A DNA stretch of 58,152 nucleotides from a virus (taxonomy: Duplodnaviria > Caudoviricetes): positions 1-58,152 of the IMG/VR virus record IMGVR_UViG_3300042988_001268. One strand, given 5' to 3'. Below the pieces are notes generated by a model. It did not search any database, was not told where the DNA came from, and saw nothing but the letters and a program-made list of their open reading frames with translations. Positions 470 to 16,600 of the stretch are shown here, one piece after another; position 1 is the first letter of the stretch; each line of letters starts with the position of its first letter. The position numbers were made by a program, and so were the translations under genes.

Positions 470-763
470 ATGGCTATTCTCGCAAAGGTATATCGCAACG
501 GCATTAGCGCCACGGCGCCCGATGCAATGGGCGCGCGCGCCGTCACGATTGAAGCGGCGCCCGCGCCTTGCTTTACTGGCACGCTAGGCAAAGCGGCCGC
601 CTATCTAGAGCGCCTGCCGATCGGTCAATCGGTTGAGGTGCGCTATTACCGGAACGGGAAGTTTGCCGGTTTGCGCTCTTGTATGAACAAGCCAGCGCTA
701 TGGGATAGCTTGCGCGATGGCGCGCGGCGCCGTTCCATCCCTAGCATTCGGGCGGCCGCCTAA
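470..763 (+). CDS. Hypothetical protein
   Basis: ATG at 470 after SD; TAATG coupling to next gene. Confidence 0.7.
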   Translation: MAILAKVYRNGISATAPDAMGARAVTIEAAPAPCFTGTLGKAAAYLERLPIGQSVEVRYYRNGKFAGLRSCMNKPALWDSLRDGARRRSIPSIRAAA

Positions 764-915
764 TGTCCGCCGCGCTTCACCTTCTCGGCGCTTGCGTCCA
801 GCCCTTTGCCATTGTGCTGGGTGCCTATGCCCTAGCAGGCATCTGCAGGGACTGGCGCCGGGCTATCCCGACAATTCGCGCAATCCGCGCGCAGCTTGAA
901 AGGTTGAATCCATGA
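763..915 (+). CDS. 50-aa hydrophobic protein (not in ORF track)
   Basis: MSAALHLLGACVQPFAIVLGAYALAG...; TAATG overlap at start and ATGA overlap at end. Confidence 0.65.
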   Translation: MSAALHLLGACVQPFAIVLGAYALAGICRDWRRAIPTIRAIRAQLERLNP

Positions 916-1139
916 ACGTCCGGATTTTCATCGGCGCCGCCGCTTATGCCTGTATTGAGGAAAGCGGCCGGAAAACTGATATTCTGCTTTCCCCTGGAAA
1001 GGGCCCGATTGCCTCGCTTCGGGAATATGCGGAAAGCGAAAGGGCTCGAGCGCTTCGGATTCTGGAAATGGCGGCTCTTGCTGATAGGGCGGCCGATTGC
1101 CTGGAAAAGGAAAAGGCCGAATCTCCCATTGCAGCATAG
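912..1139 (+). CDS. Hypothetical protein
   Basis: GAAAGG SD, ATGA overlap. Confidence 0.7.
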   Translation: MNVRIFIGAAAYACIEESGRKTDILLSPGKGPIASLREYAESERARALRILEMAALADRAADCLEKEKAESPIAA

Positions 1140-1211
1140 GCCGAAACGCGCGGCCGATGTGTCGCGCGTCGCAAGGGATTGTGCGCCCCTTGCCTGACGA
1201 TGGCAGCACAA
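1140..1211 (+). ncRNA. Type II hammerhead ribozyme with loop I pseudoknot (HH1; leader copy 3)
   Basis: GCC-GAAA-CGCGCG..CGCGCG-TC^-GCAAGGG-ATTGTGCGC-CCCTTGC-CTGACGA-T-GGC-A-GCACAA; predicted cleavage after C1170. Confidence 0.9.
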
Positions 1212-1226
1212 GCGAAGGAAAGAGCC

Positions 1227-1676
1227 ATGGATAAGATAGGGCAGGCAATCGCCCGCGCGGCAGATGGACTCGAGCGCGGCTTTTGGTGGGAAGATACGCG
1301 CGGCGATAAGCTGGCTTGCGGCTGGCTTGTGGGCGCCTGTTTTTCGCCGGGGCCCGATGGCGGATATACGGCGCGCGCTGCTTTTGGCGAATTCTGGGCG
1401 CCCGCGGAATATCGCAATGATGGCGCGCGCGTATCGGAATCAGCCGATGAAAAGGGGCAGCGCCTAGGGCGCGCGGCCGCCGTTGCTGCAATGCGCGAAT
1501 TCGCCGCTATGGCGCCGATCGATCGCGCCGCGCGCGCCGCCTATGTAGAAGATTGCCGGCGCCATCCGCTTTATAATGACGGCCGGCCGCGCCGCGCTTG
1601 GGAAGCGCTGGGCGAAATTGAGCACGAATCGTGGCGGCGCAATCCATCGCCGCGCGACTGGAGCGCTGCAGCATGA
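1227..1676 (+). CDS. Hypothetical protein
   Basis: GAAGGA SD directly after HH1. Confidence 0.75.
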   Translation: MDKIGQAIARAADGLERGFWWEDTRGDKLACGWLVGACFSPGPDGGYTARAAFGEFWAPAEYRNDGARVSESADEKGQRLGRAAAVAAMREFAAMAPIDRAARAAYVEDCRRHPLYNDGRPRRAWEALGEIEHESWRRNPSPRDWSAAA

Positions 1677-1858
1677 TCGCGCCCGCTTTCATCGCTGGCC
1701 AGCTTGTCACCGTGGCGCCGCCCATGACGCCACATTGCCGGCATAGCGGCCGGATCATCGCCCGCGCCCGCAATGGCCACGGATGGCGCGTCGAATTCGA
1801 TGCTTGGGGGATACGTTGCCGGGAGACCATGCCCGAACGGTGCATTGCACCCGCCTAG
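1673..1858 (+). CDS. Small hypothetical protein (SH3/KOW-like pattern)
   Basis: ATGA overlap; F..GQLVTV...GRII.......RVEFD pattern. Confidence 0.6.
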   Translation: MIAPAFIAGQLVTVAPPMTPHCRHSGRIIARARNGHGWRVEFDAWGIRCRETMPERCIAPA

Positions 1859-1944
1859 GGCCCTATCCCGGTTTACCGTGGCGTGCGCCTGGCTCTTGCC
1901 CGGCGCCGCCTTCCCCTATCCCGGTTTTCCGTCCGGGGAAGCGG

Positions 1945-2010
1945 AAGGCGCAAGCCTTAGCCGATCGGCATTGCCCGCGCCGATCGGACCCTATCAGGGC
2001 AAGCGAAAGG
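1945..2010 (+). ncRNA. AGGC/GCCT hairpin plus pseudoknot-SD leader copy 4
   Basis: AAGGC-GCAA-GCCTT; CCGATCGGC/GCCGATCGG stem, loop ATTGCCCGC, partner GGGCAA 1997-2002, GAAAGG. Confidence 0.75.
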
Positions 2011-2018
2011 ATAGACCA

Positions 2019-2171
2019 ATGCCGATTGACTATGCCGCGCCCATGATGCGCGATCGCTCCCGATTCCCGGCCGCCAAGGGCCGCGCCATGACGCGCCGCG
2101 CCGCGCGCCGGGAAAAGTCCGCCCGCTTGTTTCTTGCGCTGGCTTTCCCGGCCGAATTTGGGGAGCGTTGA
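2019..2171 (+). CDS. Small basic hypothetical protein
   Basis: ATG 2019 after GAAAGGA. Confidence 0.65.
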   Translation: MPIDYAAPMMRDRSRFPAAKGRAMTRRAARREKSARLFLALAFPAEFGER

Positions 2172-2174
2172 GCC

Positions 2175-2444
2175 ATGATCGATCTAGAAAAGAACGTGCC
2201 CGGCGTCGGTTGGATATTTATCCAGCCGCTTAGCCCTATCCCTATTGCAGATCGGGCCGCCTATCTTTCCGCTACCTATGGCAAGCGCGCCGCACAATTC
2301 CGGATTGTCGAGCGCGCCACTATGTCGCCAGCACGAATCCGCGCCATGGATCTAGCCGATTGGAAAGCCATCGGCCGCCCTTCCGCGCCTGTCCCTAGCG
2401 CTGCATCTGCAATCATTGCCAAATTGCGGCGGGAGCGCGGCTAA
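2175..2444 (+). CDS. Hypothetical protein
   Basis: GGGAG SD, operon context. Confidence 0.65.
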   Translation: MIDLEKNVPGVGWIFIQPLSPIPIADRAAYLSATYGKRAAQFRIVERATMSPARIRAMDLADWKAIGRPSAPVPSAASAIIAKLRRERG

Positions 2445-2620
2445 TGGGAGAGGCAACGCATATTCGCTTGCAGTACCTGCCAAGCCCTACCGCGCGCGTG
2501 TGGCGCAATTCGTCCCTGACAATGTGGGCGGCCGGCCGGGACAATATGGCGGCCACGGCCGAACGGCTGAAAGCACAAGAGGGCTGGCACGATTGGCGGA
2601 TTGTCCCGCACAATCCCTAG
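2444..2620 (+). CDS. 58-aa hypothetical protein (not in ORF track)
   Basis: TAATG coupling; MGEATHIRLQYLPSP...WRIVPHNP. Confidence 0.6.
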   Translation: MGEATHIRLQYLPSPTARVWRNSSLTMWAAGRDNMAATAERLKAQEGWHDWRIVPHNP

Positions 2621-2693
2621 CCCCTACCCGCGGCGCGCTGCAGATCGGCGCGCCGCCTATCCTGCCCCCTTCCCGGATTCACGGGGGGCGCGA

Positions 2694-2763
2694 TAGGCGC
2701 TAAGCCTAAACCCTACCGCGCGCGCCCGTCGCGGCCGGGGAACCTACCAGGGCACACGAAAGG
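2694..2763 (+). ncRNA. AGGC/GCCT hairpin plus pseudoknot-SD leader copy 5
   Basis: TAGGC-GCTAA-GCCTA; CCGCG/CGCGG stem, loop CGCGCCCGT, partner GGGCAC 2750-2755, GAAAGG. Confidence 0.7.
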
Positions 2764-2770
2764 TAAACCA

Positions 2771-4105
2771 ATGGTTACGATTACCGCGACTTATAGCCCG
2801 GAAGACAACAAACTTCGCCTTTATGCGAGCTCCCGCCTTGACGCGGAGACATTCGCGCGGGTGAAGGCCGCCGGCTTTGCATGGGCGCCCCGGCAAGAGC
2901 TTTTCGTTTCCCCCAAGTGGACGCCGGAGCGGGAAGACCTGGCAACGGAGCTTGCCGGCGATATCGAGCCGGAGGAAATGACGCTTGCGGAGCGCGCCGC
3001 CCTGAAGGCGGAGCGGCTCGAGGGCCTGGCGCACAAGCGGCACGGTGAGGCAAACGCCTTTGCCCGGCGCGCGGATGAATTGTCGCAGGCGTTCTATATG
3101 GGCCAGCCGATCCTTATCGGGCACCATTCCGAGCGGAAGGCCCGGAAGACGCAAGAGCGCATGCAGGCGGCAAGCGACAAATCCGCGAAGCTGGCCAGCG
3201 CGGCCAATTATTGGCTCTATCGCGCAACCGGGGTTGAGCACTTCGCCAACATGAAAAACAACCCCCGCGTGCGGGCAAACCGGATCAAGACCCTATTAGC
3301 GGAATTGCGGGACCTGCAGCGCACAATTAACGAGGCGCACAAGGGGCTTGAGCTTTGGGAACGGTTCGACACGCCGGAAAAAATCATGTGGGCTATCTGC
3401 AACCTGAACGGGGACGCGCTGGCCATTCCCTGGGGGACCTATAGCAAGCGCGAAGAAGTCAACACGGCCGAGCTCAAGGCGGAATGCATCGCGCGTTTGC
3501 GGGCGCGGATCGATAGCCCAAAGCGCCGCCGCTGGATCGAGCACATTCTAAACCGCCTTGCGTTCGAGCGGTCTTTGCTGGGTCCGGTGGAGCGTTACGA
3601 GGGGGAGCTAACCCCTGTCATCCTGCAGGCCTTCGCCCGGGAGCATGGCGCCGACAAGCCGAAGGCAACCGAGATTGAGCCCGGGAGCTTTGAGCTTGAA
3701 AGCGCCGTGCCGCTTCCCCTTCACCTGGCAAGCGGGCGCTGGCTTGAATTGGACGCGGAAGGCTGGCGCGATCTTATGCAGGGCGTGGGGTACGAGGTGC
3801 CCGAGAAAAAGGCCGCCCTACCGCCGATTTTGAACGTGGAAGCGGAAACGCTTTATTCCCCTTCCCGGGCATTCGGGCAGCGCGGAGAGGCGGAAGCCTG
3901 GCGCGTGGTGAAGGTTACCAAGGCGCAGCTTGACGCGGTGCACAACGACGCCCGCGGGGTCCGGCCTAGCGCTTGCGGTCAATTCCGCTTTCGCGTTGCC
4001 AGCGCCCGGCACCTGAAAATTGAGGGCGCGAATCCCTGGGAATATGTGGCGGTTTTCGTCACTGATTCCAAGGTGCACCCCATGCCGGAAAGCATGGCGG
4101 CATGA
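2771..4105 (+). CDS. DUF3560-family protein
   Basis: N-terminus TATYSPEDNKLRLYAS and GQPILIGHHSERKARK motif typical of this family. Confidence 0.8.
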   Translation: MVTITATYSPEDNKLRLYASSRLDAETFARVKAAGFAWAPRQELFVSPKWTPEREDLATELAGDIEPEEMTLAERAALKAERLEGLAHKRHGEANAFARRADELSQAFYMGQPILIGHHSERKARKTQERMQAASDKSAKLASAANYWLYRATGVEHFANMKNNPRVRANRIKTLLAELRDLQRTINEAHKGLELWERFDTPEKIMWAICNLNGDALAIPWGTYSKREEVNTAELKAECIARLRARIDSPKRRRWIEHILNRLAFERSLLGPVERYEGELTPVILQAFAREHGADKPKATEIEPGSFELESAVPLPLHLASGRWLELDAEGWRDLMQGVGYEVPEKKAALPPILNVEAETLYSPSRAFGQRGEAEAWRVVKVTKAQLDAVHNDARGVRPSACGQFRFRVASARHLKIEGANPWEYVAVFVTDSKVHPMPESMAA

Positions 4106-4704
4106 GGCCAGATTGCTATCGGATGGCCAAGCGGCCCGCGTTCCTCCCGGTCAAGCGCCGGGAGGACTTCGCCCCGGTGGAGGCAAAGGCTCCGCCGGAG
4201 ATTGTGGCAGTCGATCGCGCAACGGAATGCCACGTTACCCCGCCGGAAGTTGCGGCGCGGATGGTGCGTTACCTGGGGGAGACCTGCGACCGCCTGACCC
4301 TCGAGCCAAGCGCGGGGACAGGGAACCTAAGCCGGGCCTTGATCGAGTCCGGGCACTCGCCTTGCGAGCTTGTCCAGGTAGAGCGGCACATTCGCCTAAG
4401 CCACGGTCTCCGCCAATTCGGATCGCTGATAAACGAGTGCTTTCTAGAGTATGCGGAGCGGGCCCGGGGCAAGGTCGAATTTCCCCGCGCGATCATGAAT
4501 CCGCCGTTTTCAGAGGTGCGGAAACATATTGCGGCGGCCCGCTCGCTTATGGGCAGGCACGGGCACCCGGTGCCGCCGGTTCTTGTCGCGCTTGTGCCGG
4601 TGACATTCCAGGCGGACGGAATGGAAACGCTAGAGCATTTGCCGGCGGATACGTTCGCGCATGCCCGGGTGAACACGAAAATAATTCGGATTTACGGGGA
4701 TTGA
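4102..4704 (+). CDS. SAM-dependent (N6-adenine-type) methyltransferase
   Basis: TPPEVA, LEPSAGTGNL (motif I), MNPPF (motif IV); ATGA overlap. Confidence 0.85.
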   Translation: MRPDCYRMAKRPAFLPVKRREDFAPVEAKAPPEIVAVDRATECHVTPPEVAARMVRYLGETCDRLTLEPSAGTGNLSRALIESGHSPCELVQVERHIRLSHGLRQFGSLINECFLEYAERARGKVEFPRAIMNPPFSEVRKHIAAARSLMGRHGHPVPPVLVALVPVTFQADGMETLEHLPADTFAHARVNTKIIRIYGD

Positions 4705-4783
4705 CGGGCGGGCGGGGCTCCGGTCCCGCCTCCTACCGTGGGAGCCTGGCCCCCTACCGTGGGAAACGGGCGGGGCTTCCATG

Positions 4784-4854
4784 ATAGGCAAGAGCCTATG
4801 ACCGGCGCGGCATTGCCCGGGCGCGTCGGGGATGATGAAAGGGCGGAAGAAAGG
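4784..4854 (+). ncRNA. AGGC/GCCT hairpin plus pseudoknot-SD leader copy 6
   Basis: ATAGGC-AAGA-GCCTAT; CCGGCGCG/CGCGTCGG stem, loop ATTGCCCGG, partner GGGCGG 4841-4846, GAAAGG. Confidence 0.7.
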
Positions 4855-4864
4855 AATTGAGACA

Positions 4865-5272
4865 ATGGCAGGACTTACCTTTGCCCGCGCGCTGGAAATT
4901 ACGTGCGAGCTCGCCAGCGATAACGTGATCGATGACCCCGACATGATCGAGGAACAAGAGGAGCAGGAAGCGGCGATTGCCATGATCGAGAGCGAAGCCC
5001 CCGCCATGCTGGCGGCGCTGCGCGATCTGGTCGCCGGCAACTATGGCCAGCCGTCCGGCGTGACGGTCCCCGCGCTTGATCCTGCCCGCGCCATCCTCGC
5101 CCGGATCGACGGCACCCCTAGCGGTGAAGCCGTGGGGGCTATCGGGGATGCGCAAGCGAAGGCCGCCCGGTTGCGCGCCGATGCGCTGGCGCTGGATACC
5201 GGAATGGACCCCGCCCTAGTGCGCGAATTGCACGCGGAAGCCGATAGGATCGAAAGCGGGGGGGAGGGCTGA
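4865..5272 (+). CDS. Acidic hypothetical protein
   Basis: ATG 4865 after GAAAGGA. Confidence 0.7.
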   Translation: MAGLTFARALEITCELASDNVIDDPDMIEEQEEQEAAIAMIESEAPAMLAALRDLVAGNYGQPSGVTVPALDPARAILARIDGTPSGEAVGAIGDAQAKAARLRADALALDTGMDPALVRELHAEADRIESGGEG

Positions 5273-5275
5273 GCA

Positions 5276-5470
5276 ATGGCCGCGCACGTCATGGCGCACC
5301 GTGGCCCCGGTTCCATCTTTGGCCGCGCTTCCGCCCCGTTGAAGGGGCCGGACGGCGGACCGCTGGAATTCCCCACCCTAGCCGAAGCGCAGGCCGAAGC
5401 GGCGCGGCTCAATGCCCGCGCAACTCCGAACGTCCACTATCAGGCAGAGGAGGGCCCCCCTACCGCGTGA
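5276..5470 (+). CDS. Hypothetical protein
   Basis: GGAGG SD, operon context. Confidence 0.7.
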   Translation: MAAHVMAHRGPGSIFGRASAPLKGPDGGPLEFPTLAEAQAEAARLNARATPNVHYQAEEGPPTA

Positions 5471-5474
5471 GACA

Positions 5475-5550
5475 GGCGAAACGCGCCCCTAGCCCCGCTT
5501 GGGGGCGCGTCCGGCGGGCTTGCTCATCCCGCCGCTGATGAGCCGAGCAA
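5475..5550 (+). ncRNA. Type II hammerhead ribozyme with loop I pseudoknot (HH2; leader copy 7)
   Basis: GGC-GAAA-CGCGCCCC..GGGGCGCG-TC^-CGGCGGG-CTTGCTCAT-CCCGCCG-CTGATGA-GCC-GAGCAA; predicted cleavage after C5511. Confidence 0.93.
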
Positions 5551-5564
5551 ATGAAGGAATCGAC

Positions 5565-6161
5565 ATGCTGCAATCTGCATTGACCGCCAAGGGCACCGGC
5601 TACCACGGGAGCCCCGCAACCGCATCCTGGCCGGGGACCGAGCGTTGCACTGCGTTCGACCCGTTCGACATTCTGGCGAACCCGCTGGGCGGTGACACGG
5701 CCGCGGCGAGGGAAAGCCGGGTTTTCGCGTCCAAGTCCGGAGGGGCTGGCACGACATACGTAAGCCATGAATTCTACCTGATGCGGCGCAAGGATGCGCG
5801 GCCGGGCGATGTCGCGTTCTATGTGGCGGTGCATCACGGCGGCGGCCGGCAAGTCTGGGCGCTTTCGTCCTGCTATCACTATTCCGAGGAGACGATTGCG
5901 GCGCTCCTCGCCATGCCGGAGCGGGCGCTTTATTCGCTGCTGCATGGGATCGTGGCGGCGCTCGATGATACCAAGCGCGCCGCCGAGCGCGACACGGCGG
6001 ACGAATGGCGCCGGGCTACCGTGGGCAAGCGCGTTAAGGTTTCGCGCCAGCCGACGAAGGGCCGGGCCTTTGTCTGGATCGAACCGGAGCGGCAAGAGGG
6101 CGAGAGCGAGGCGCAACACAAGCTGCGCTGTAGCCTGGCTAAGCCGTCCGGGGTTCGCTGA
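5565..6161 (+). CDS. Hypothetical protein
   Basis: GAAGGA SD directly after HH2. Confidence 0.75.
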   Translation: MLQSALTAKGTGYHGSPATASWPGTERCTAFDPFDILANPLGGDTAAARESRVFASKSGGAGTTYVSHEFYLMRRKDARPGDVAFYVAVHHGGGRQVWALSSCYHYSEETIAALLAMPERALYSLLHGIVAALDDTKRAAERDTADEWRRATVGKRVKVSRQPTKGRAFVWIEPERQEGESEAQHKLRCSLAKPSGVR

Positions 6162-6220
6162 ACCCTACCCGCATTCACCGGCGCGGCTATCATCGCCGCA
6201 CCGAATCGGAGTGAAACAAC

Positions 6221-6505
6221 ATGACCGGAACAATCGGAATCGAATGGACGAACGGCCGCCCGCACAATGGCGCTGAAGCCGATGAGGAACGCGCGGAAGC
6301 TGCAGCCCTCGCCAGCCTGCAGCGCGCCGGGGTGACTCCTGAAGCGGCGCACGCGGCATATATGGCACAATGGCTTGAATATGACGACGAGGGGGCGATG
6401 CACGGGGACGCGCTGGCATGGATTGCCGCCCGCGATGCAGCGAATCTGGCCGCGACCGAGGGATGGCATAACCCGGACGGGGCGCACGTCTCGATCTACC
6501 TCTAA
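6221..6505 (+). CDS. Acidic hypothetical protein
   Basis: GGAG SD. Confidence 0.7.
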   Translation: MTGTIGIEWTNGRPHNGAEADEERAEAAALASLQRAGVTPEAAHAAYMAQWLEYDDEGAMHGDALAWIAARDAANLAATEGWHNPDGAHVSIYL

Positions 6506-6564
6506 CCGGCGCGGCGGCCTAGTCCGCCCGCCTTCCCTGCACCGGCCCTATCCCGGTTCATGGG

Positions 6565-6627
6565 AGGCGCACCGCCTACCGTTCCGGCTTGCCCGTCCGG
6601 AGCGCGTCAACCTGGGCGAATGAAGGG
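6565..6627 (+). ncRNA. AGGC/GCCT hairpin plus pseudoknot-SD leader copy 8
   Basis: AGGC-GCACC-GCCT; CGTTCCGG/CCGGAGCG stem, loop CTTGCCCGT, partner GGGCGA 6614-6619, GAAGGG. Confidence 0.72.
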
Positions 6628-6634
6628 AATGACC

Positions 6635-8092
6635 ATGCTTTGCGATCTTTTCAGCGTGACAACCGACATCAAGGACAAGCTGGGGAACGGAACCCGGCAG
6701 GCGAACGAAGCCGAGGCGAAAGCCTATGCCGACTTTCTGCGGCGGCGGCGCGATCTGCCCGACCTGGGCCATTGCGACCTGCACATCCTGTCAATCGGCG
6801 CTGGCCGACGCGGCGGGTTCATCTATCAGGGCGCGACGTTCGGGCGCCGGATTGCGGCCCCGCACAACATCAAGCAGCCGGGCGGGGAATTCCGGCATGT
6901 TCCGGCGGAATACGAGAACGGCGCGTTTTCCGTCATCTTCCCCGGCCACGATATGCACCGGGCCCGCGTCAAGTTCGAGGAACTGGACGAAGCCGGCGAG
7001 ACGGTGAAGGCCAGCACCCTACCAGTGGAGCCGAAAAAGGGCGGCGTGATCTGGTCGCGCGAGGACGTGCGCAAGGCCGCCGGCAAGGTGGAGAAGCCGG
7101 GCAAGGTGAAGGCCGCGCCGGCGGCGGACCCTATCCCGGTCGCGTGCGACCCGGCCCCTACCGTGGAAATGGCCACCCAGGAGCCGCAGGAGCGCGCCGA
7201 GGAGCCTCCCGCACCCCATGCCTATCCGGAGCCTGTGAAGGCGCTGAGCGAGGCCGAGGCGGGCGAGAGCGAGGCAATCGAACCTTACGATGCTATCGTA
7301 AAGTTGCCGGAGGTGGACCCCATCGCCGAACTTCTCGCCCGGGTGGAAGCGCTCGAGGCGCGGGTGGAGGCCCTACCGGCGGATATGGTGGCGCCCCCTA
7401 TCGCGGCTGCAGGACGGCCGGCGCGCACGGTGGCGCACGAGCGGGCAATTCGCCGGGCATGGGCAGAGCGGAAGGCGCGGCGGCGCTCCGATGCCATTTC
7501 GGCGGATCGCTTCAGCCAGCTTGTCGAGACGAGCGGGAAGCTGAGCACGGCGGAAAGCAATCTCCGCATGGGCCAGGCCCAGTATGACGGGCTCAAGGCG
7601 GATCTTGCCGAAGCGCGAACCCGGCTGCAGGCCAAGCAGGAATTGCTCGACGCCGAAAACGAGAACTACCGGGCTCTTGCTAGGCTGCTGGACCGGATCG
7701 CCGCCAAGCGCCGCCGCGCCGTGCTGAATGCCCGCATCCTGCAAACGCGGCTTTGGAGCGAATGCGCGCTGGTCGACCGATACCGGGGAGAGGTGAAGGC
7801 CGCCAAGGTGGAGGCGGAAGGCGCGCAGGGACGGGCGGACATGGCCCAGGCCGAGCTCGCCAGGATCAAGCGCGACATGGCGGACCCATCGCAGCCGGAA
7901 CGGGCCAACGACATCGCCCGCTTGATCCAGGAGCGGGACGCGGCGCGAACGGCGGCCGCTGCAACCGATGCCCGCAACCGGGCGCTGCAGAGCGCGGTGG
8001 ATGGGCTGGCCGACAAGTTCGAGGGCATGGTATCCCGCGTGAGCCGTGCCGAGGCGGCGATGCGTGCGGCCGGGCTGACGTTGGCGGCGTAG
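6635..8092 (+). CDS. Large hypothetical protein with Pro/Glu linker and coiled-coil C-terminus
   Basis: Long ORF, SD GAAGGGA, heptad-like C-terminal half. Confidence 0.8.
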   Translation: MLCDLFSVTTDIKDKLGNGTRQANEAEAKAYADFLRRRRDLPDLGHCDLHILSIGAGRRGGFIYQGATFGRRIAAPHNIKQPGGEFRHVPAEYENGAFSVIFPGHDMHRARVKFEELDEAGETVKASTLPVEPKKGGVIWSREDVRKAAGKVEKPGKVKAAPAADPIPVACDPAPTVEMATQEPQERAEEPPAPHAYPEPVKALSEAEAGESEAIEPYDAIVKLPEVDPIAELLARVEALEARVEALPADMVAPPIAAAGRPARTVAHERAIRRAWAERKARRRSDAISADRFSQLVETSGKLSTAESNLRMGQAQYDGLKADLAEARTRLQAKQELLDAENENYRALARLLDRIAAKRRRAVLNARILQTRLWSECALVDRYRGEVKAAKVEAEGAQGRADMAQAELARIKRDMADPSQPERANDIARLIQERDAARTAAAATDARNRALQSAVDGLADKFEGMVSRVSRAEAAMRAAGLTLAA

Positions 8093-8094
8093 GG

Positions 8095-13694: not shown

Positions 13695-16600
13695 TCACCT
13701 CTTGATCCGGTTGATGATCAGCCGGCCTGACATGAAAGAGTGGGTGTCCGTCGAATAGACGCTGCCCCGAAGCAGGATGGTGTACGAGCCGGCGACCACA
13801 ATCGGCAGAACGTACACCGGGTTGAGGTTCGCGCTGTAGCCGATGGTCGCCGAGGGCAGTTGAACGCTGGACGTAGATGCAGTCAGGAATCCTGTCCCGA
13901 CGCCAGCAGGAGCAGATGATAGGCGGAGTTCCGCACCCGTCCGCTTATAGGACATGCTCAAGGGGAGTTCGACTTCCACCGCAGCCTGAATGATCAGGAC
14001 ATCGCCAACGGACAGGGTCCGCGTAATCGACAGCAAATCTTCGTCCAGCCCGTCCGACACAGAGATCGGCGACGAGAACTGCGAGGTATAGACGTCGTGT
14101 ACAGCGCTCGCCTGTATGGCTGCTGTAGCCACCTTGTCGGTCTTCACCGTTCCATCGCTATTGAGGCCACTGTTAGCGGAGTTGGCGCCAGTGGCGACCG
14201 TGGCGGCAGAGGTGCCGTTGATCGTGCCAGTGATGTTGCCGGCGAAGGCGACCGTCGACGAAGGCTGGTAGCGCAACTCCCCGGTATTGGTCGGAGAGAC
14301 GATGGACGAAACCATGATCCCGGCCGCGTTGACGTTCGTGTCGACCCGGCGATAGGCCCGAACCCCGAACGTATAGTAGAGGTCCGCGGACATCCCGGAG
14401 AAAACGATGGCGCGCTTGTTGGCGGAGGTGACATAAACGGTTTCCAGCGTCGGGTTCCCGCCGATGCTGTATGCCCCGTTCGACGTCGACGAATAGATAA
14501 AGACGTGGAATCCGTCGATGTCCGCCTCGGTCCCGGCCCATGCCCATCGAAACACAATATCAACCGAACCATCGGTATTCGGGCTGTGATCGATGCCCGT
14601 CCCATTGGTCGGAACTGTTGGCGCCAGAATGGCATCCCCATTCTGATTGTTCGACGCATTGAAGTCCGCCGATGACTGGGCCACCACTGCGGCAGTCGTT
14701 CCGGCGATTTGCCCGGTATAGTTTGGCGTCGATGCAGGCTGGTAGCGCAACTCCCCGGTATTGGTCGGAGAGACGATGGACGAAACCATGATCCCGGCCG
14801 CGTTGACGTTCGTGTCGACCCGGCGATAGGCCCGAACCCCGAACGTATAGTAGAGGTCCGCGGACATCCCGGAGAAAACGATGGCGCGCTTGTTGGCGGA
14901 GGTGACATAAACGGTTTCCAGCGTCGGGTTCCCGCCGATGCTGTATGCCCCGTTCGACGTCGACGAATAGATAAAGACGTGGAATCCGTCGATGTCCGCC
15001 TCGGTCCCGGCCCATGCCCATCGAAACACAATATCAACCGAACCATCGGTATTCGGGCTGTGATCGATGCCCGTCCCATTGGTCGGAACTGTTGGCGCCA
15101 GAATGGCATCCCCATTCTGATTGTTCGACGCATTGAAGTCCGCCGATGACTGGGCCACCACTGCGGCAGTCGTTCCGGCGATTTGCCCGGTATAGTTTGG
15201 CGTCGATGCAGGACGGTACGGATGCTGGCTCGCTCCCGATGAAAACACAGCGCTGGACCGCATAATCCCAGCCACGTTGATGTCGGTATCGACGATCCGG
15301 AAGGCCCGGACAAAGAACGAATACCAGAGGTTCGACGGAAGGCCATTTATCGTAAAGGCGCGCTTCACTGCGGGCGCGGTAAATATCTGCTCCTCGGCGG
15401 GTGCTGAGTTCAGAACATACGTCGCATTAGAATCGCGAGAGGATCGGATAATGATTTCGAACCCATCGATGTCCGCTTCGGTGCCAGACCAACCCCACTT
15501 GAAGGTGATGTTGACCGACGAGTCCGCATTGCTGACTGCCGTGAATGCAGAACCGTCGCTCGCCACGGTCGGTGTCACCAGCGCCGTCGAGATCCGGTCG
15601 TTCGAGACATTGGTATTGGCGACCGACTTCGACAGCGTGACAGTGCGGCGATAGGAGAACCCGGTGTAGGCCCCACTCCCGGTTGCCACGATGGTCAGCG
15701 TCGCTGAGTCCTCGCCGGTGTCGAAGCCTCCGCTGATGGTGAAGGTCTGCCCGGAATAGGCCACCGTGAGCGTCTGAGGATTGCCGCCCGATGCCGTGGC
15801 GAGCGAGAAGTTCGAGGAGACATCGGTTCCATCAGGCAGGCGTGCGGTGAAGGAACCCGTCGCCAGGGCATAGCTCGTGACCGCATTGGAGCCATCGACC
15901 GGCAGGGTAATCATCGACTTCGTGAGCGCGACATCGAGCGCGTCCAGTCCGTCATCGCCTGGATCCCCGGTTGCCCCCTGCTTCGACTTCGACAGCGAGA
16001 ACGTCTTGTCGACCGTCACCCCCGAATGCGCGCCGCTTCCGGTAGCCCTGATGGCGAGGTTCGCCACATCGGTTCCGCTCGCGAGCCCGCCAGAGACCGT
16101 ATAGGTTCGGCCCGAGTACGAGACTGTCAGGCCGGCCGCGTTCTGCAGCGTCGACAGGGTGAAGCTCGACGAGACATCGGTCGCACCCTTGAAAATCTTG
16201 AAGTCGCCCGTGGCCCCAGAATAGCTGCTGACGACACCAGTCGGTCCTGCGACGACCTGATGGCTCTCATTGGTCAGGAACCCGGTGTAGGCATCCGAGC
16301 CGTCCTGGATCTTGGTGATGGTGATGAGTTCGCGCAGATCGTCGCAGTAGATCGCGACCACCACCCCCTTCGCCGAGCCGATCGCCGCGTCGAAGTTCGC
16401 CCCCGTCATGGTCACGGTGTCGCCGGTCTGGGTGAAGCTGTTCGCGTCGGGCACGTTCTGGGTAACGGTGCCGCTTCCCGTGAGATAGACGCCGGCGTCG
16501 ATCTGGGTGCCTGGGAGCCGGTACATCTTGACGATCAGGTCGGACGTCGTGTTGGTCTTGGTCGCCGTGAAGGTGACGCTCTGCCCGGCGATGATGACCC

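Follow-up and report, generated by a model that had tools for sequence, protein, structure and literature searches.

The DNA that follows a 75-residue open reading frame (ORF) in a phage early gene block reads like a hammerhead ribozyme with an additional U in its catalytic core. This raises the questions of whether the element is a genuine hammerhead, how the extra U bears on its activity, and what self-cleavage between two cistrons would do. The window that we analyzed spans 58,152 bases and is a complete virus record from IMG/VR (CheckV completeness 100), with the following gene content:

0.2-12.2 kb, + strand: small ORFs, DUF3560 protein, methylase-like protein, ATP-dependent DNA ligase
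12.5-39 kb, - strand: lysozyme, large tail proteins, major capsid protein E, decoration protein D, S49 protease, lambda-type portal, terminase gpA
45-57 kb, + strand: CI-like repressor, exonuclease, PDDEXK protein, HNH nuclease, DNA methylase, tyrosine integrase

The window is a temperate phage with lambda-like head genes, and both the element in question (HH1) and a second one (HH2) lie in its + strand early gene block.

Two type II hammerheads in the early gene block

The whole window was searched against the 4227 Rfam families using cmscan. Only two matches reached the gathering cut-off, and both were to Hammerhead_II (RF02276). HH1 scored 40.3 bits against a cut-off of 37 (E 8.5e-5), and thus passes the Rfam check that the initial annotation of this DNA had proposed. 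The match spans the full model (positions 1-66) and has a per-genome E of 2.0e-8. The elements of HH1 and its surroundings are:

912-1139, +: 75-aa upstream ORF without a known family, ending in the TAG (1137-1139) that abuts HH1
1139-1212, +: HH1, type II hammerhead (Rfam Hammerhead_II match)
1140-1142, +: 5' strand of stem II, GCC, paired base by base with 1202-1204
1143-1145, +: core residues G12 A13 A14 (from the sequence and the Rfam alignment)
1146-1169, +: stem III hairpin with a 6-nt loop; 7 Watson-Crick pairs and 2 more pairs further in
1170, +: C17, end of the GUC triplet; predicted cleavage C1170/G1171, from the Rfam alignment position
1171-1193, +: stem I hairpin, 7 bp (1171-1177 with 1187-1193), 9-nt loop I at 1178-1186
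1179-1184, +: loop I half of the pseudoknot, UUGUGC, complement of 1206-1211
1194-1200, +: core residues C3-A9, CUGACGA (sequence and Rfam), fitting C3 U4 G5 A6 N7 G8 A9
1201, +: extra U between A9 and G10.1, an insert in the Rfam model
1202-1204, +: 3' strand of stem II, GGC; G1202 is G10.1
1206-1211, +: 3' tail half of the pseudoknot, GCACAA, preceded by the linker A1205
1214-1219, +: Shine-Dalgarno (SD)-like GAAGGA, 2 nt after the pseudoknot and 7 nt before ATG 1227
1227-1676, +: downstream ORF, 149 aa, no family, GC3 0.63
5474-5551, +: HH2, type II hammerhead without the extra U (RF02276, 42.4 bits, cut-off 37)

The topology of HH1 is that of type II, with stems III and I capped by hairpin loops and stem II built by the 5' and 3' ends of the element. 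Stem III comprises 9 pairs in total, 1146-1152 pairing with 1163-1169 and the first pair being A15.1-U16.1 (A1146-U1169), and residue 17 is C1170, in agreement with the non-G requirement of RF02276. The complete type II core described in the initial annotation (GAAA, GUC and CUGACGA) was found in place with all its bases. The same inspection confirmed, pair by pair, the 3-bp stem II (G1140-C1204, C1141-G1203 and C1142-G1202) and the 6-bp pseudoknot between loop I and the 3' tail that had been claimed with it. The pseudoknot consists of 6 Watson-Crick pairs (1179-1184 with 1206-1211), with a duplex estimate of -6.2 kcal/mol, and because it is absent from the Rfam model, it supports HH1 independently. 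The insertion of U1201 between A9 and G10.1 was also correctly called: the Rfam alignment scores this base as an insert, and the G10.1-C11.1 pair (G1202-C1142) is formed, with U1201 intervening between the pair and A9. Insertion-free registers of HH1 give at most one stem II pair. U1201 is best taken as a variant inside RF02276 and not as a ground for exclusion from it.

HH2 has the same layout as HH1: a stop codon at 5468-5470, the pseudoknot UUGCUC/GAGCAA, an AAGGA and an ATG at 5565. The two elements lie on the same strand, 4.3 kb apart, and each spans from a stop codon to the next ribosome-binding site (RBS). For the gene downstream of HH2, 29 relatives were found, ranging from 126 to 329 residues; most have 183-194 residues and align over almost the full length of the query, which fixes the start of this gene at ATG 5565. 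Clustered phage and prophage hammerheads that punctuate operons (Perreault et al. 2011) occur more than once on the coding strand, in spacers between genes, and HH1 and HH2 together show this arrangement.

Short core words are frequent, and HH1 could in principle be a chance likeness, in which GC-rich hairpins happen to carry core words in a spacer of 64% GC. The fold z-score of the HH1 region is indeed unremarkable (z -1.6, with 20 of 200 shuffles equally stable). However, the Rfam E-value given above was obtained against all families, the 6-bp pseudoknot is in the canonical place, and the second copy has the same layout. A relaxed descriptor (CUGANGA, GAAA, at least 3 pairs in stem III, 4 in stem I and 2 in stem II, and an insertion of 0-2 bases) was run on both strands of the window and matched solely at HH1 and at 5474-5551. 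The same descriptor gave 9 matches in 300 random 58-kb sequences from a first-order Markov model, so that 0.03 matches are expected per window against the 2 found, which have much longer stems (9/7/3 pairs in stems III/I/II of HH1 and 12/7/3 in HH2). Moreover, a pattern made of the 3' half and tail of HH1 occurs once in the window and in 0 of 100 shuffles. On the Rfam score, the descriptor controls and this last result, we rejected chance likeness, the probability of which is practically negligible. By its sequence motif, HH1 is a genuine type II hammerhead.

No third hammerhead was present in the window at E<=1, where only two weak YrlA-like matches appeared, near 8.1-8.3 kb. In this region (8097-8281, +), tandem tRNA-like modules lie directly 3' of a 510-aa ORF. 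At 8168-8232, where the anticodon arm is shortened, the tRNA model scored 28.1 bits (cut-off 29); the two partial YrlA-like matches follow the order T-arm, stem, D-arm, and ARAGORN found no tRNA. These modules could represent tRNA genes in decay, or else processing signals of the same operon that resemble tRNAs. The early block also contains a repeated 8-mer, CCCTACCG, with 12 copies, all on the + strand and all in window 2485-10569 (1.1 expected; 0 of 100 shuffles reach 12). Its core, CCTACC, occurs 27 times on the + strand (22 of them in 2485-10569) and 12 times on the - strand. These sites are found in ORFs and spacers alike, and one lies 9 nt before HH2.

The extra U and the route to the active fold

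The frequency of the extra U among other hammerheads was analyzed in viral contigs by two scans, each yielding at least 119 stretches. In scan 1, which sought type II hammerheads with a GCC/GGC stem II and the extra U, 113 of the 126 pattern matches had at least 4 pairs in both stems, among the matches listed. In scan 2, the bases following CUGAUGA were left free, which makes the scan insertion-agnostic, and 40 of 123 matches passed a filter of at least 5 pairs per stem, among the matches listed. These 40 hammerheads, again among the matches listed, divide into 28 without insertion, 10 with an extra U, 1 with an extra G and 1 unclassified. A GCC/GGC stem II is present in 9 of the 10 with the extra U against 6 of the 28 insertion-free ones (among the matches listed). 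With a covariance model trained on 16 sequences, we identified 38 hammerheads among 100 of the at least 119 scan 2 loci, and the column after the core is T in 11 of the 38 rows, one of which is a clear misalignment, leaving about 10 of 38 with the extra U among the matches listed. When run on the window at E<=10, this model found HH1 and HH2 alone, HH1 being one of its training sequences. The extra-U frequency was taken from the insertion-agnostic sample and not from the raw counts of the two scans. The extra U is thus a common variant, present in about a quarter of viral type II hammerheads among the matches listed, and not a rarity.

In the alignment of the 38 viral hammerheads, 92.7% of the cells form a pair; the average in shuffles is 62.1%, none of 500 shuffles attained the real figure, and sliding the partners lowers pairing to 27-45%, all among the matches listed. 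The nested helices were fitted to the covariance model, and the pseudoknot lies outside it. In its columns, 79.6% of the cells pair and two-sided changes are seen in 5 of 5 pairs, among the matches listed. A pseudoknot of at least 5 pairs is present in 49 of 103 unique hammerheads with the extra U, against 8.2 with permuted tails (among the matches listed). The viral type II hammerhead family is under selection.

That single insertions at the A9/G10.1 position are tolerated in natural hammerheads had been asserted in the initial annotation, and the literature agrees in two cases. In the (+) hammerhead of CChMVd, A9 and G10.1 are separated by an additional A, which moderately lowers the rate of the ribozyme (PMC3705267, citing De la Pena and Flores 2001). 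In this ribozyme, C or G at the same place is detrimental, and U gives 3-4 fold faster trans-cleavage (PMC3705267). The insertion is at exactly the core position of U1201; the CChMVd (+) hammerhead differs from HH1 in being of type III, in coming from a plant viroid with rolling-circle replication and in having A, not U, as its natural residue. The second case is HH3, one of a triple array in a prophage of Agrobacterium tumefaciens C58 (PMC3088659). In supplementary file 10 of that paper, the oligonucleotides JP096 and JP130 read CUGAUGA-U-GGU opposite ACC-GAAA, and the U between the core and GGU shows that HH3 has the same insertion as HH1. Like HH1, HH3 is an alphaproteobacterial, intergenic type II hammerhead; its stem II is ACC/GGU, whereas that of HH1 is GCC/GGC (PMC3088659). 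The products expected from cleavage by all three ribozymes of the array were obtained in vitro and in E. coli (PMC3088659). Section 8 of the same paper gives other core variants and does not discuss the A9/G10.1 extra U. By analogy with these ribozymes, U1201 can be regarded as a common and probably tolerated bulge with experimental precedent.

We weighed against this that HH1 might be slow, conditional or dead, with the extra U, or a fold between the tail and the stem III loop, leaving most transcripts uncut; HH1 would then serve mainly as a structured spacer or a regulated switch. The A9 phosphate and the G10.1 N bind a divalent ion (PMC7151607), and U1201 lies between these metal ligands. 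In addition, when all 74 nt are folded without regard to the pseudoknot, the nested structure of lowest energy is not the hammerhead: it has -32.8 kcal/mol, and the best hammerhead-compatible nested fold has -30.1 kcal/mol. However, the pseudoknot, which is invisible to the folding program, would add about -6.2 kcal/mol to the latter. In folds of the growing transcript, the hammerhead was the minimum-energy structure at ends 1170, 1194 and 1205, stem III was present at every step, and the hammerhead fold was lost only on adding the tail, which the program is unable to pair with loop I. These calculations suggest that another structure competes with the active fold after synthesis of the tail, but that the active fold would arise first during transcription. 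The extra U also occurs together with covarying stems in about a quarter of viral type II hammerheads among the matches listed, which is not expected from decay. Finally, the natural extra-U copy HH3 belongs to an array that is reported to cleave fully (PMC3088659), and a U at the A9/G10.1 site raised the in vitro rate of the CChMVd ribozyme (PMC3705267). A slow or inactive HH1 appears quite improbable.

Placement of HH1 and its turnover among related phages

HH1 begins at the first base after the TAG stop codon at 1137-1139 and its pseudoknot ends 2 nt before the GAAGGA at 1214-1219, exactly as first annotated. The upstream ORF has no Pfam or PHROG match, a weak GC3 of 0.53 and a single relative (69% identity) on viral contig L003; at the L003 locus, no hammerhead was found by Rfam at E<=1 or by the relaxed descriptor. 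For the downstream ORF, there was no Pfam or PHROG match and no relative in viral contigs, and in a set of 5.8 billion proteins it retrieved itself alone among 839 candidates. A comparison of window 700-2200 with public phage genomes by blastn in its distant mode gave no match. Both ORFs are likely to be coding. Since the downstream ORF lacks relatives and both GC3 values are weak, the description of HH1 as lying between two genes is drawn from the ORFs, the SD sequence and one relative.

The same packing was found in other hammerheads with the extra U. Among the matches listed, 62 of 103 unique ones have an SD and a start codon within 40 nt downstream, against 308 of 2060 controls. The distance from stem II to the RBS has its mode at 8 nt among the matches listed, and is 10 nt in HH1 and 9 nt in HH2. 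Sufficient upstream DNA was available for 98 of the 103. A long ORF stops 0-10 nt upstream in 59 of these 98, and 19 more overlap the upstream stop by one base, among the matches listed; the controls gave 55 of 980. In 42 of the 98, the stop codon directly precedes or includes the first base of the ribozyme (among the matches listed). The order of stop codon, ribozyme and RBS is a general rule of which HH1 is a typical member; like the HH1 motif and its fit to the family, this placement and its generality are read directly from the DNA. In the open-access text searched, no passage describes this stop-ribozyme-SD spacing, and we do not claim that it is unpublished. In viral loci L004-L122, the upstream stop is often TAG, with its G as the first base of stem II.

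Relatives of the phage were gathered via its DUF3560 gene and are prophages of Novosphingobium, Sphingobium and Sphingomonas (Sphingomonadales) and of other Alphaproteobacteria. The DUF3560/methylase-like module (window 2771-4823) alone is shared with the related phages, and its flanks are mosaic. Conservation of HH1 in an orthologous slot was considered and failed on account of these mosaic flanks. Among 10 related viral loci, the descriptor found hammerheads in 3, in differing slots (two in L126, one in L127 and one in L129), and only the L129 copy was recovered by Rfam at the gathering cut-off. The closest relative by the neighboring module (G002, 98% complete) has no hammerhead. Among 30 related genome loci, 1 has hammerheads, L275, from a Novosphingobium MAG prophage. 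It contains a homologue of HH2 (5142-5221, 73% identity) and, at 1652-1725, the sole HH1-like homologue found. The latter shares the extra U with HH1, its loop I is almost identical, the changes in its stem I are fully compensated, and one pseudoknot pair is switched from G-C to C-G; at core position 6, where A is invariant, it has G. Its extra U, together with the compensatory change in the pseudoknot, speaks for tolerance of the insertion. A blastn-short search with HH1 and HH2 against all retrieved loci gave no match, and standard blastn against the same loci retrieved the L275 homologue of HH2 and, with HH1 as query, only partial similarity in the core and stem I. That the one HH1-like relative is altered in the core, and that other relatives manage without a hammerhead, are points in favor of a slow or inactive HH1.

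As the number and slot of hammerheads vary among relatives, those of this phage group appear, from sequence comparison, to come and go as cassettes, and HH1 itself does not appear to be conserved. The genes flanked by phage hammerheads are likewise described as not constant (PMC3088659), in agreement with such turnover.

In window 4705-4831 (+), the spacer after the methylase-like gene, there is no hammerhead; L126, L127 and L129 carry one there. In the window, this stretch has two copies of CCTACCGTGGGA in direct orientation, along with a GC-rich hairpin. In an unrelated virus of 112 kb (G001, the record behind L027), 20 Hammerhead_II matches lie at 874-13935 on the + strand, about one per 650 bases, and at least 10 of the 20 have the extra U.

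Predicted cleavage and its consequences

We propose that HH1, placed between two cistrons, self-cleaves co-transcriptionally after C1170 and thereby splits a polycistronic message into separate mRNAs, a reading to which we assign, from the sequence, a probability of roughly 0.85. A scan for promoters and terminators gave fewer matches than shuffles and none was placed, so that the message is presumed to be polycistronic. Behind the RNA polymerase, stem III would form first, followed by stem I and stem II, loop I would pair with the 3' tail, and the core is predicted to catalyze an internal transesterification between C1170 and G1171. Hammerhead cleavage leaves a 2',3'-cyclic phosphate on the upstream RNA and a 5'-OH on the downstream RNA, and from this family knowledge we infer the ends that HH1 would produce. 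The upstream RNA would extend 31 nt past its stop codon and carry the 2',3'-cyclic phosphate at a 3' end formed by the GC-rich stem III hairpin. The downstream RNA would begin with a 5'-OH and the stem I hairpin, with the RBS 43 nt and ATG 1227 56 nt 3' of the cut. Given what is known of bacterial RNA decay, such 5'-OH ends would probably be a poor entry for 5'-end-dependent RNases. The cut would uncouple the stability and translation of the two cistrons, and HH2 may act alike 4.3 kb downstream.

Cleavage might also be gated by translation, such that HH1 cuts only while the upstream cistron is unread and the extra-U/GCC-GGC subclass is rate-tuned for this race. Given that HH1 starts at the base after the stop codon, a ribosome that terminates there would occlude the 5' strand of stem II, G12-A14 and the 5' strand of stem III. 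The tight packing against the stop codon is general, being found in 42 of 98 extra-U hammerheads among the matches listed. The extra U of this subclass lies between the two A9/G10.1 metal ligands. We regard this extension of the cleavage proposal as rather doubtful.

Another reading is that HH1 and HH2 act as a pair, releasing a 4.3-kb RNA from G1171 to C17 of HH2 that a host RtcB-type ligase then circularizes or rejoins. RtcB requires the end chemistry of hammerhead products, so that the ends left by HH1 and HH2 would suit it, and the two ribozymes do share a strand, at a distance of 4.3 kb. The phage ORFs scanned, however, included no RNA ligase, the sole ligase being the ATP-dependent DNA ligase, and the free variation of hammerhead number and position among relatives fits independent punctuation better than a fixed pair. 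The possibility of such release was raised by Perreault et al., whose text reports that spliced or circular products were not detected (PMC3088659). We consider paired release very improbable.

Independent cleavage at HH1 and HH2, the best supported of these readings, corresponds to an existing proposal, in which long phage transcripts are cut to single-gene or short mRNAs (Perreault et al. 2011, PMC3088659). The CI-like repressor, the integrase and the lambda-like head genes of the window make up the setting of that proposal, although reviews still call the biological role of phage hammerheads open. The RF02276 hammerheads of that study have the same core as HH1 and the same topology, open at stem II, together with a stem II of 2-3 bp and a Watson-Crick pseudoknot between loop I and the 3' tail (PMC3088659). 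As in this phage, several copies flank single genes or short gene blocks of a phage, near an integrase (PMC3088659). The A. tumefaciens array flanks ardA (PMC3088659), whereas no ardA was found among the ORFs of this phage. Compared with the RF02276 hammerheads, HH1 shows nothing different in kind, its particulars being the one extra U and flanking genes without a known family. Pairs of phage hammerheads and the A9/G10.1 extra U were both already known, and HH1 and HH2 are one more pair among thousands.

The arrangement also resembles an engineered one. In RiboJ-type synthetic insulators, a self-cleaving hammerhead placed just 5' of the RBS removes the upstream RNA and makes downstream expression independent of the RNA that precedes it, which is how HH1 is proposed to work. 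RiboJ is engineered and derived from type III, and no kinship to HH1 is claimed.

With a complete core, a textbook pseudoknot and a common extra U, HH1 is a clean test object. HH2, without the extra U, lies in the same genome and allows a direct comparison of both core forms, and the pair lets the effect of cutting on neighboring genes be examined. The packing figures, in which 59 of 98 ribozymes among the matches listed follow a stop codon at a distance of 0-10 nt and the RBS comes about 8 nt after the ribozyme, may aid the question of what role these ribozymes play in phages.
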